From Pseudolabrys sp. (GTDB lineage: Bacteria; Pseudomonadota; Alphaproteobacteria; Rhizobiales; Xanthobacteraceae), in the NCBI GenBank assembly GCA_022843325.1, contig JALHNV010000008.1, forward strand, positions 5,665 to 69,664: a DNA stretch of 64,000 nucleotides, written 5' to 3'. Below are positions 50,736-53,826 of this stretch, piece after piece. Below the pieces are notes generated by a model. That model worked only from the letters and a program-made list of their open reading frames with translations, searched no databases and was not told the origin of the DNA. The first letter of the stretch is position 1. Every line of letters starts with the position of its first letter. A program made the position numbers and the translations under genes.

Positions 50736-51992
50736 GTGCCCGATTCAAGCGATATACGCCTGCCCGCGACCCGCACCGTTGCCGTCATCGGCGGCGGCCC
50801 GGCCGGCCTGATGGCGGCGGAAGTGCTGGCGCGGGCCGGCGCGACGGTGACGGTTTACGACCGGATGCCCTCGCTCGGCCGCAAGTTTCTGCTGGCCGGC
50901 CGCGGCGGCCTCAATCTAACCCACAGCGAGGACCTCAAGCCGTTTCTCGGCCGCTATGGCGACGACATCGATCCGAAACTGCGCGCCGCGATCGAAGCCT
51001 ATCCGCCGCAGGCCTTGCGCGCCTGGAGCGACAGCCTTGGTCAGGAGACCTTCATCGGCTCCAGCGGCCGGGTGTTTCCGGTCGCGCTGAAGACCTCGCC
51101 GCTGCTGCGGACCTGGCTGCTGCGGCTCGGCAATCTCGGCGTCACCGTCAAGCTGCGCCATCGCTGGGACGGCTGGGACGACGAAGGCCGGCTGCGCTTT
51201 GCCGGGCCCGATGGCGAACAGGTCGTGGCGCCCGATGCGACCGTGCTGGCGCTTGGCGGCGCCAGCTGGCCGCGGCTCGGCTCCGATGGCGCCTGGGTCG
51301 AGACGCTGGCCGCGCACGGCGTGAAGGTGACGCCGCTGCAGCCGGCCAATTGCGGCTTCACCGCCGCCTGGTCCGAGGTCTTCCGGAAATTTGAAGGCCA
51401 GCCGCTGAAACGCATCGCCGTCGCACTGGCCAGCCGCAGCGTGCGCGGCGAAGCCGTCGTCACCCGCGACGGGCTCGAAGGCGGCGCCATCTATGCGCTG
51501 TCGTCGGCGATCCGCGACGCCATCCTGCGCAACGGCAAGGCCACGATCATGGTCGATCTGCTGCCGGACGTGAGCGTGACGAAGTTGCGCGAACGCCTGT
51601 CGGGCGCGCGCGGCAAGCAGTCGCTGTCGAACTTCCTGCGCAAAGCGACGCATCTGTCGCCGGTGGCGCTCGGGCTGGTGCGCGAGGCGGCCTTGCCGGC
51701 CGGCCGTTCGCTGTCGACCATGGACGCCAAGGATCTGGCCGGTCTGATCAAGGCGGTGCCGGTGACTCTCACCGGCGTGCAGCCGATCGCCACCGCCATT
51801 TCGACTGCCGGCGGCGTCAGCTTTGACGAACTCAATGCGCAGCTCATGCTGCGGCGGCGGCCGGGCCTGTTCATCGCCGGCGAAATGCTGGATTGGGACG
51901 CGCCGACCGGCGGCTATCTGTTGCAGGCCTCGTTCGCCACCGGCGCCGCTGCCGGGCACGGCGCCGCAGCCTGGCTGTCGAAGCGGCGCTAG
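50736..51992 (+). CDS. HI0933/BaiN-like flavoprotein (TIGR03862 type)
   Basis: [42 protein letters not shown]. Confidence 0.88.
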
Positions 51993-51995
51993 GCC

Positions 51996-52032
51996 AAAAC
52001 AAAGAAGGGCCGCCCACACGGGGCAGCCCTTC
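51996..52032 (-). terminator. Intrinsic terminator of a minus-strand small transcript
   Basis: Minus strand GAAGGGCTGCCC-cgtgt-GGGCGGCCCTTC followed by TTTGTTTT. Confidence 0.75.
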
Positions 52033-52071
52033 CATTGTCGAACCGCAGTCCGTGGACCGGACTGAAATGGC

Positions 52072-52149
52072 TTACGCCACGCTAAGTCCCACCGAGGCGA
52101 GAACCCAGGTCACGGATGCCGACGGCTGCGGCGATAGACAATGAGACAC
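52072..52149 (-). CDS. 25-aa small ORF (fM-SHCLSPQPSASVTWVLASVGLSVA) with an extreme Shine-Dalgarno
   Basis: GTG preceded by AGAAAGGAGGTGATCCA; GGAGG is 7 nt from the start; terminator downstream. Confidence 0.6.
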   Translation of the reverse strand: MSHCLSPQPSASVTWVLASVGLSVA

Positions 52150-52244
52150 TGGATCACCTCCTTTCTGAATGTTGACGACACAATCAAGGTAAGGTGTTCG
52201 CCGCGATTTGGAAGTGGCAAATTGCGGCAGGCGCACCGGAATTT

Positions 52245-53310: not shown

Positions 53311-53763
53311 CTACGCCGCGCCGGTCAGTTGCTTCTCGATCTGATGAACCGGCATCTTGACGAAATCCTTATCGACCTCGGCGCGGATGGCACTCTTGAG
53401 CGCCGGCGAATAGGCCGCGCGCAACATGCCGAGCGCGCGCGGCGGCGCCACCATGATCATGGTTTTGGTCTTGCCTTCGGTCAGCGCAACATCGAGGTAC
53501 TTGGTCAGTTCGACGAGAAAACTCCGCTCCGCCTGGTCGTGCCAGTCGGTCTGCTCGACCGCACTGCGGCCGGTGCCGACCGAACTGAAACTGCGACCGG
53601 GTGCGCCGGTGCCGAGATCGCGCGTCGCCAGATTCTCCTGCTCAAACACTTCGATGGTTTTGAGATTGGGAAACTTCAAATCGCCGGCATTCTCCAGCAC
53701 CAGCGCCTTGGCACCATCGCAGACAACAACCCATTCGCCCCTGCGGATCAAAAGATCGGACAT
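53311..53763 (-). CDS. Host attachment protein (AtsE/baeRF12-like)
   Basis: WVVVCDGAKAL, APGRSF, MVAPPRALG, DKDFVKMP; AGGAGG RBS. Confidence 0.88.
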   Translation of the reverse strand: MSDLLIRRGEWVVVCDGAKALVLENAGDLKFPNLKTIEVFEQENLATRDLGTGAPGRSFSSVGTGRSAVEQTDWHDQAERSFLVELTKYLDVALTEGKTKTMIMVAPPRALGMLRAAYSPALKSAIRAEVDKDFVKMPVHQIEKQLTGAA

Positions 53764-53826
53764 GAAATTCCTCCTGAACTGCATCAAGTCTAGAGCTGCC
53801 GCGTGGTCGCGGTTTACTCCAAATCA

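Follow-up and report, generated by a model that had tools for sequence, protein, structure and literature searches.

Known Relatives of the Unit

The small mRNAs designated rre are transcribed from a promoter of their own and carry a 17-nt stretch complementary to the 16S rRNA 3′ end, with the G of the GTG start codon as its last base, a tiny open reading frame (sORF), and a terminator (PMC5711450). The rreB mRNA of Bradyrhizobium is 165 nt in length and has an RpoD-like promoter, a terminator, and a 14-aa sORF, and the GTG's initial base is included in its 17-nt Shine-Dalgarno (SD) complement (PMC5711450); homologs have been examined by Northern blotting in B. japonicum (PMC5711450). The rreB RNA is found mostly in the ribosomal P100 fraction and co-sediments with the 30S subunit, a localization for which the SD's 5′ extension is needed, and partial sequestration of the SD in a hairpin has already been proposed (PMC5711450). 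Translation of rreB is weak, and its RNA becomes more stable when the start codon is exchanged (PMC5711450). The RNA sequences designated CC2171 were first discovered in C. crescentus, according to a preprint on M. extorquens in which the RNA was validated by Northern blotting and treated as an sRNA of unknown function. In the literature searched, no paper naming both CC2171 and rre was found, and Hahn et al. 2016 (PMC5711450) make no mention of CC2171 or Rfam. No statement on the CC2171 RNA was found in the Caulobacter ribosome-profiling paper.

A CC2171/rre Unit in Pseudolabrys

The locus analyzed here lies within a 64,000-nt stretch of a Pseudolabrys sp. contig (the window), taken from a metagenome-assembled genome that originated in water-treatment metagenomes; features are on the minus strand of the window unless otherwise stated. 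A scan of the whole window against Rfam at gathering thresholds returned exactly one match, RF01867 (CC2171), at 52173 to 52006 on the minus strand, scoring 82.3 bits (gathering score, 75; model positions 1 to 159 of 159; E value, 2.5e−15). Both the closing helix (CAUUGUC/GACAAUG) and the 3′ terminator hairpin of RF01867 were present, and both covary in 73 homologs. The first-pass annotation did not recognize the unit as a described family and had named a match to one as grounds for giving that view up; with a score above the RF01867 gathering threshold and the published rre layout (PMC5711450), such a match was found. The element is already known as a family, of which this is an ordinary member. 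Taken together, the unit is very probably the host genome's single copy of the alphaproteobacterial CC2171/rre small-mRNA family, with an rreB-like mechanism.

The 5′ block, the closing helix (P1), the 3′ UUCGACAAUGGA sequence, and the terminator are common to RF01867 and the window copy. However, in Rfam the family is filed under non-coding sRNAs, with no annotation of the sORF or of the 16S complementarity; the window copy agrees poorly with the Caulobacter-centered consensus in its middle part (many non-canonical marks); and an additional long-range helix, P1b, was supported in the alignment made here. The unit and rreB have in common an identical 17-nt tract, GAAAGGAGGUGAUCCAG, whose final base is the G of GUG, as well as initial codons specifying Met-Ser-His/Gln, a similar promoter, a terminator, and a small size (about 180 nt and 165 nt, respectively) (PMC5711450). 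An rreB-type locus of Bradyrhizobium (14-aa sORF, MSQSKRCHLAGIAR) gave a weak but significant match to RF01867, with 36.4 bits (E value, 4e−6), which places rreB on a diverged branch below Rfam's threshold, whereas the window copy is a typical CC2171 member. Judged by sequence comparison, Rfam's CC2171 sRNA belongs to the same family as the rre small mRNAs.

Several features separate the two branches. The rreB peptide has 14 aa (MSQSKRCHLAGIAR type; MS(H/Q)SKRCHLA) rather than 25 aa of the MSHCLSP..W type; the part of the 16S tail copied within rreB is UCACCUC and not CUGG(A/G)U(C/U); and the rreB SD is proposed to lie partly within a hairpin. The context also differs, with a conserved tRNA-Gly and hybrid sensor gene at rreB and SBP_bac_3 and HI0933-like genes next to the window unit. 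Neither the 14-aa RreB peptide nor the tRNA-Gly/hybrid-sensor context of rreB in the strict sense was found at the window locus. The rreR gene of Rhodobacterales likewise combines a 16- to 17-nt 16S complement ending in the GTG start with a tiny sORF, but its peptide has 18 aa and is reported to be without similarity to RreB (PMC5711450). More distant parallels are type I toxin, leader-peptide, and dual-function small mRNAs (rnTrpL of S. meliloti being a dual-function sRNA), which also are small transcripts with a tiny ORF in which translation and structure are coupled. The 17-nt SD, in contrast, is unique to rre genes; unlike leader-peptide mRNAs, the window unit has no downstream gene to attenuate, only its own terminator with a convergent gene beyond, and unlike type I toxin mRNAs, no toxicity has been reported for the CC2171/rre family (PMC5711450).

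An Extended Shine-Dalgarno Tract

On the plus strand, positions 52149 to 52166 read CTGGATCACCTCCTTTCT, an 18-mer identical in 18 of 18 positions to the 16S rDNA 3′ end of the same genus. The reference was an rrn operon taken from a complete genome of the same genus (...CTGCGGCTGGATCACCTCCTTTCTAAGG; in a longer reading, ...GGGGAACCTGCGGCTGGATCACCTCCTTTCTAAGGATG); no 16S gene was present in the host assembly (137 contigs, 3.88 Mb, 94% complete), and the Rfam SSU model terminates at ...CCTTT. With up to three mismatches allowed, the 18-mer matched the window once, compared with 0.01 matches expected, and it occurs as one copy in the entire 3.88-Mb, 137-contig assembly.

Read on the minus strand, the tract (52149 to 52166; AGAAAGGAGGUGAUCCAG) is an extended SD, AGAAAGGAGGTGATCCAG, whose final base is the G of a GTG start codon (52149 to 52147). 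The rre layout has at least 16 nt of perfect complement to the 16S 3′ end upstream of an sORF, with the last nucleotide serving as the first base of the start codon; here the complement was 18/18 and the G at 52149 opens a 25-codon sORF. Thus, the perfect 18-nt complement and its direct run into a GTG, both described in the first-pass annotation, were confirmed, with the refinement that family-wide conservation extends to only 17 of the 18 nt. This core, GAAAGGAGGTGATCCAG (52165 to 52149), formed invariant columns in 73 homologs and likewise terminates on the G of the GTG, as in the published rre layout, while the 5′ A varies (A/C/T/G). Depending on the mature 16S 3′ end, the last 1 to 3 nt of the rDNA end may or may not pair, and the duplex could be 14 to 18 bp. 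Only one Caulobacter gene in about four is preceded by an SD of any kind (ribosome-profiling paper), which makes clear how exceptional such a tract is in its class.

An 18/18 identity to the rDNA end could also be left by a decayed rrn operon with the 16S 3′ end on the opposite strand. This origin was given almost no weight: the identity stops at the 18-mer (upstream, the window reads GACAATGAGACA and the rDNA GGGAACCTGCGG), no SSU or ITS match was identified in the window, and hundreds of genomes share the architecture, in every case with its own promoter and terminator. The alignment of the flanks to rrn or ITS sequence, raised in the first-pass annotation as a result that would overturn its reading, was looked for, and the flanks had no rrn similarity; on this comparison, an rrn-operon remnant was rejected as a candidate.

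Promoter, Terminator, and Transcript

No promoter was called by a simple σ70 scan. However, when the 60 nt upstream of the tract were aligned in homologs, a conserved motif, CTTCCGAA...CCTATATTG, was apparent, and the hexamers TTCCAA (52208 to 52213) and TACCTT (52186 to 52191), separated by a 16-nt spacer and suggested as a possible promoter in the first-pass annotation, occupy its positions. The −35-like hexamer aligned with the CTTCC(G/A)AA block conserved upstream of homologs and the −10-like hexamer with their CCTATATTG or CTTAC(C/G)TT block. In the family, CTTCC(G/A)AA-N(about 13 to 15)-CCTATATTG lies about 20 nt ahead of GAAAGG, followed by (A/G)TCGTCAACAAC. The suggested promoter is thus retained as a conserved promoter-like block, although the scan itself found none. 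Between this block and the tract lies a 5′ leader (52167 to 52179; ..CGUCAACAUUC), which reads (A/G)UCGUCAACAAC in relatives; the Rfam model starts within it, at 52173.

At the opposite end, a predicted intrinsic terminator (51996 to 52033) consists of a 13-bp G+C-rich stem (52033 to 52003) that covaries, a 5-nt loop, and an UUUGUUUU tail, in agreement with the U-tailed terminator noted earlier. The terminator hairpin lies 4 to 11 nt past the stop codon of the convergent HI0933-like flavoprotein gene, which ends at 51992 on the plus strand. Read on that strand the hairpin lacks a T-tract, and it may or may not also terminate the HI0933-like gene.

The unit is most likely autonomous, with transcription starting near 52179, and the transcript would run from about 52179 to about 51997. 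The separate small transcription unit of ~190 nt put forward in the first-pass annotation is supported at a length of about 180 nt. At the sequence level, the unit has a conserved promoter-like block and a terminator, as would suit the independent small transcript expected of an rre gene, and homologs were present in RNA runs. None of the RNA runs searched contained the locus of the host organism, only homologs of relatives; the host locus itself was found in DNA metagenomes from drinking water, activated carbon, and soil. One RNA-run contig spans the whole unit (52001 to 52165, 17 differences), and a plant metatranscriptome carries the conserved 5′ block at a summed depth of about 300. These contigs place relatives' copies in RNA libraries, nothing more. 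Overall, the sequence comparison made here establishes the unit's family membership and the conservation of its tract, frame, helices, promoter, and terminator.

Long-Range Helices Enclosing the sORF

Two long-range helices connect the start of the sORF with the 3′ part of the RNA. The 5′ strand of P1, CAUUGUC (52137 to 52143), comprises codons His3 and Cys4 and the C of codon 5 and pairs with GACAAUG (52039 to 52033); P1 is also part of the Rfam consensus and of the minimum free energy fold. The 5′ strand of P1b, CCGCAG (52126 to 52131), covers codons 7 and 8 and pairs with CUGCGG (52048 to 52043), so that the two 3′ strands together occupy 52033 to 52048. The perfect 7-bp hairpin reported in the first-pass annotation was also located (CAGUCCG-GUCCA-CGGACUG, 52046 to 52064; CAGTCCG/CGGACTG in the DNA). 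Its 3′ arm overlaps the 3′ strand of P1b, and the two structures are therefore alternatives.

For the comparative analysis, the long-range helices were specified by hand and counted across the alignment; RNAalifold run on the MAFFT alignment recovered only the terminator and trivial GGA/UCC pairing. P1 was paired in 97% of cells, with compensatory variants including CAUAGUU/GACUAUG, CAAGGUC/GACCUUG, and CAAUGUC/GACAUUG. P1b has the family consensus CCGCGG/CCGCGG and was about 80% paired, and the window copy carries a double change in it (CCGCAG/CUGCGG) that restores pairing as a compensatory A-U. For P1, P1b, and the terminator jointly, 90% of cells paired, compared with 30 to 59% when the partner was slid, and double-change cells numbered 120 versus 36 ± 5 in shuffles (73 homologs). 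The folding z-score of the unit RNA was −3.9 relative to shuffles, and the SD tract was mostly unpaired in the centroid fold. These counts argue that P1 and P1b are two long-range helices that enclose the body of the sORF and are conserved as RNA structure. Because the first codons of the sORF form one strand of covarying helices, translation and RNA structure would necessarily be coupled.

A Reading Frame Kept without Protein-Like Constraint

The 25-aa ORF described in the first-pass annotation was found as a 25-codon, GTG-started frame (MSHCLSPQPSASVTWVLASVGLSVA; 52072 to 52149, with GTG at 52149 to 52147 and TAA at 52074 to 52072), and its frame and length are kept in 137 homologs. In these GTG-class homologs, frame 0 invariably ends in a stop codon (TGA in 63, TAA in 42, and TAG in 32) after 14 to 33 codons (median, 24; 10 to 90% range, 21 to 25), while frames 1 and 2 have scattered lengths or no stop. 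The UGG of the conserved C(C/U)UGG is in frame 0, encoding Trp, in 83/87 homologs, lying 33, 36, 39, 42, 45, or 48 nt from the start and 24, 27, 30, 33, or 36 nt from the stop; indels within the sORF are thus multiples of three. No such rule holds for the segment between the stop codon and the 3′ hairpin, which is hypervariable (0 to ~70 nt; alignment columns about 125 to 200) and almost without an insert in the window copy (about 52071 to 52065). Copies of the unit within the genus range from 157 to 210 nt. The tight length in frame 0, the indels in threes, and the use of three stop codons indicate selection on both the reading frame and its length.

The amino acid sequence behaves differently. 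When conservation of peptide and RNA was compared over about 140 homologs, as had been proposed at the outset, the RNA helices covaried and frame and length were kept, but the amino acid sequence drifted. Codon positions 1 to 3 were equally variable, with no codon-position bias or periodicity. Over codons 6 to 25, pN/pS was about 1.0, a ratio confounded by the constraint of RNA structure on synonymous sites and drawn from sequence pairs that are non-independent. The invariant N terminus of homologs, Met-Ser-His-Cys, has an explanation in the RNA, where the 16S complement includes the G of GUG and one strand of P1 is CAUUGUC. No family match to the window peptide was identified in Pfam or NCBIfam. 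No protein-level constraint was detectable in the peptide sequence, and calling this unit a "small protein gene" may misplace the emphasis.

These observations bear on whether the RNA is purely non-coding, a trans-acting base-pairing sRNA in which the ORF is incidental, as implied by the Rfam type for CC2171 ("Gene; sRNA"). The covarying helices, the lack of codon-position bias, the pN/pS of about 1, and the peptide without a protein family would all suit this explanation. It does not account for an sORF of tight length in frame 0 only, with three different stops, indels in threes, and Trp in 83/87, nor for a start codon that is always at the end of the 16S complement, and the rreB fusion is translated and its RNA stability is start-codon dependent (PMC5711450). 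A purely non-coding role is accordingly considered unlikely, and the small-mRNA reading is preferred.

A second, ATG-started class of elements was noted in other families of the same order (L020 and L022 to L026), with peptides of 24 to 31 aa of the form MSS...(V/A/M)EQP(P/S)... Its Ser codons vary synonymously (TCT/TCG/TCA, AGT/AGC) while the EQP motif is kept, and, unlike the GTG class, this class looks like it is under amino acid-level constraint.

Proposed Mechanism and Earlier Suggestions of Function

Experimental data on 30S binding, weak translation, and start-codon-dependent stability come from the work of others on rreB only. By homology, we infer that these properties transfer to the window's member of the family, from which rreB, the experimental subject, is diverged (14-aa sORF; 36 bits against the RF01867 model). 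In the mechanism proposed, the single-stranded 5′ end would offer a 17-nt (here 18-nt) complement of the entire single-stranded 16S 3′ tail, and the tract, which contains the SD core, would anchor the RNA very tightly to the 30S subunit. The over-long duplex together with GUG would slow initiation and escape and so lead to weak translation, while ribosome engagement at the start codon would control the decay of the RNA itself. A ribosome translating the sORF would have to unzip P1 and P1b, as the first 11 codons form their 5′ strands.

Three roles had been suggested from the sequence in the first-pass annotation. The first, a decoy or sponge that sequesters 30S subunits by titrating 16S 3′ tails and so lowers global translation, draws on the 17- to 18-nt complementarity and on the co-sedimentation of rreB with 30S (PMC5711450). 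Nevertheless, overexpression of the 17c-rreB RNA has no effect on growth, ribosomes greatly exceed the RNA (PMC5711450), there is one copy per genome, and a pure decoy leaves the kept sORF frame unexplained, making this role very improbable. The second, a highly translated regulatory peptide, is at odds with the weak translation of rreB (PMC5711450).

The third, a type I toxin-like membrane peptide made from an mRNA with a very strong SD, has in its favor the small ORF and the hydrophobic stretch VTWVLASVGLSVA encoded in the host genome. The hydrophobic C-terminal half reported earlier is real in the window peptide but specific to its subclade and not conserved in the family: the stretch has 13 aa, and in most homologs it is replaced by sequence bearing E, R, or K, the common C terminus being ...WILASAEVRAA. 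A 13-aa helix is too short to span a lipid bilayer. The pN/pS of about 1 also speaks against a toxin, no antisense partner has been described for the CC2171/rre family, and probable overproduction of RreB causes no growth defect (PMC5711450), so that a toxin is regarded as highly improbable, and the account preferred here remains that of an rreB-like small mRNA.

Internal Copies of the 16S Tail

An internal tract of the unit (GACCUGGGUUCUCGCCUC; family consensus, GACCUGGAUCCUCGCCUC; 52094 to 52111), which includes the in-frame codon for Trp15 and is conserved in homologs, partly copies the 16S tail and is a hypothetical pairing partner of the GAUCCAG and GAGG in the same unit. An exact internal copy of at least 7 nt of the 16S tail was present in 44% of units but in only 7.5% of shuffles, and the energy of the duplex between the SD and the body was −16.8 kcal/mol, compared with −13.6 kcal/mol in shuffles. 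The piece copied differs by lineage, being CUGGAUC in 48 CC2171-type units, UCACCUC in the rreB type, and GGAUCACCUCC in two Caulobacteraceae. The CUGGAUC..CCUC of the CC2171 type lies within the sORF, and the GGAUCACCUCC of Caulobacteraceae lies past the stop codon. The two Caulobacteraceae units are copies in metagenome-assembled genomes (L044, 3612 to 3808, and L054, 814 to 1013) with a post-stop insert containing GGGATCACCTCCCT; in this insert, the 11-nt exact 16S-tail copy (GGAUCACCUCC) is a perfect complement of the unit's own SD tract.

In the window, the internal sequence is CUGGGUU..CCUC, which would pair via G-U wobbles. Across the alignment, 86% of cells would allow the SD elements GAUCCAG and GAGG to pair with the CUGGAUC..CCUC of the internal tract, where most changes were wobble compatible. 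Covariation cannot test this pairing, as the SD side is invariant; in terms of codons, too, the substitutions in the internal tract are conservative (Ile/Val or synonymous), and the folding model gives pairing of the SD with the internal tract at only about 15%. It is conceivable, if rather doubtful, that the internal 16S-tail copies compete with the ribosome for the SD and that, with an sORF kept in frame but free in sequence, the unit is a self-inhibited switch opened by the ribosome and not a small-protein gene. If true, such a switch might serve, for instance, to detect 30S subunits that are free or 16S tails that are accessible.

Distribution and Genomic Context

RF01867 was present in 13/37 same-genus genomes and in 12/24 other families of the order; the same-genus count includes some incomplete metagenome-assembled genomes and was made with strict filters. 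Absence from about two thirds of same-genus genomes marks the element as dispensable. The genome search for the motif recommended in the first-pass annotation revealed wide conservation in relatives. The core GAAAGGAGGTGATCCNRTG was found in 64/401 evenly drawn alphaproteobacterial genomes (52/295 genera), almost always as a single copy, and a reversed-pattern control gave 0 matches. The exact 24-mer GAAAGGAGGTGATCCAGTGTCTCA occurred in at least 120 named species-representative records, and among the matches listed were Caulobacter, Brevundimonas, Phenylobacterium, Pseudolabrys, Bosea, Methylobacterium, Roseiarcus, Rhodoblastus, Bradyrhizobium, Acetobacteraceae, Stellaceae, Dongiaceae, and Rhizomicrobium. 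Typical CC2171 units were also seen in two non-alphaproteobacterial metagenome-assembled records, Hydrogenophaga intermedia (L069; MSHCHHSRSQQGWVLSAKRLGV) and a Parcubacteria bacterium (L073; MSHCLSPQADTVTWASAIEVRA), which are most likely alphaproteobacterial contigs that were mis-binned and not a sign that the family has truly spread.

The sORFs closest to that of the window came from Pseudolabrys records (e.g., MSHCLSPQPPASVTWILASVGVCVA), and Pseudolabrys strain Root1462 has a unit nearly identical to that of the window (L085). The Pseudolabrys records with the closest sORFs have the gene order ACAD, baeRF12, SBP_bac_3, rre, HI0933-like, and LysK in common with the window, at 64 to 88% protein identity. 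Gene context was not conserved beyond this Pseudolabrys-like subclade, and variability in the context of rre genes was noted also by Hahn et al. (PMC5711450). A baeRF_family12/Host_attach gene (Pfam; bacterial release factor-like; 158 aa; 53311 to 53787, minus strand) is located two genes upstream of the unit and is encoded on the same strand. A functional link to this gene was rejected, the adjacency being confined to close Pseudolabrys-like relatives.

Implications for the Family

For the locus itself, the appropriate annotation is an ncRNA/small mRNA of RF01867, rre type. In roughly 1/6 of the alphaproteobacterial genomes sampled, a single-copy RNA has a tract predicted to pair with the entire 16S tail, far beyond a normal SD, and linking CC2171 and rre as the same family may help work on it. 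Two aspects emerge here as new for the family. The sORF appears to be kept as a frame, with indels in threes and interchangeable stops, in the absence of protein-like sequence constraint, and translation would have to open P1 and P1b, the first codons of the sORF being strands of these helices.
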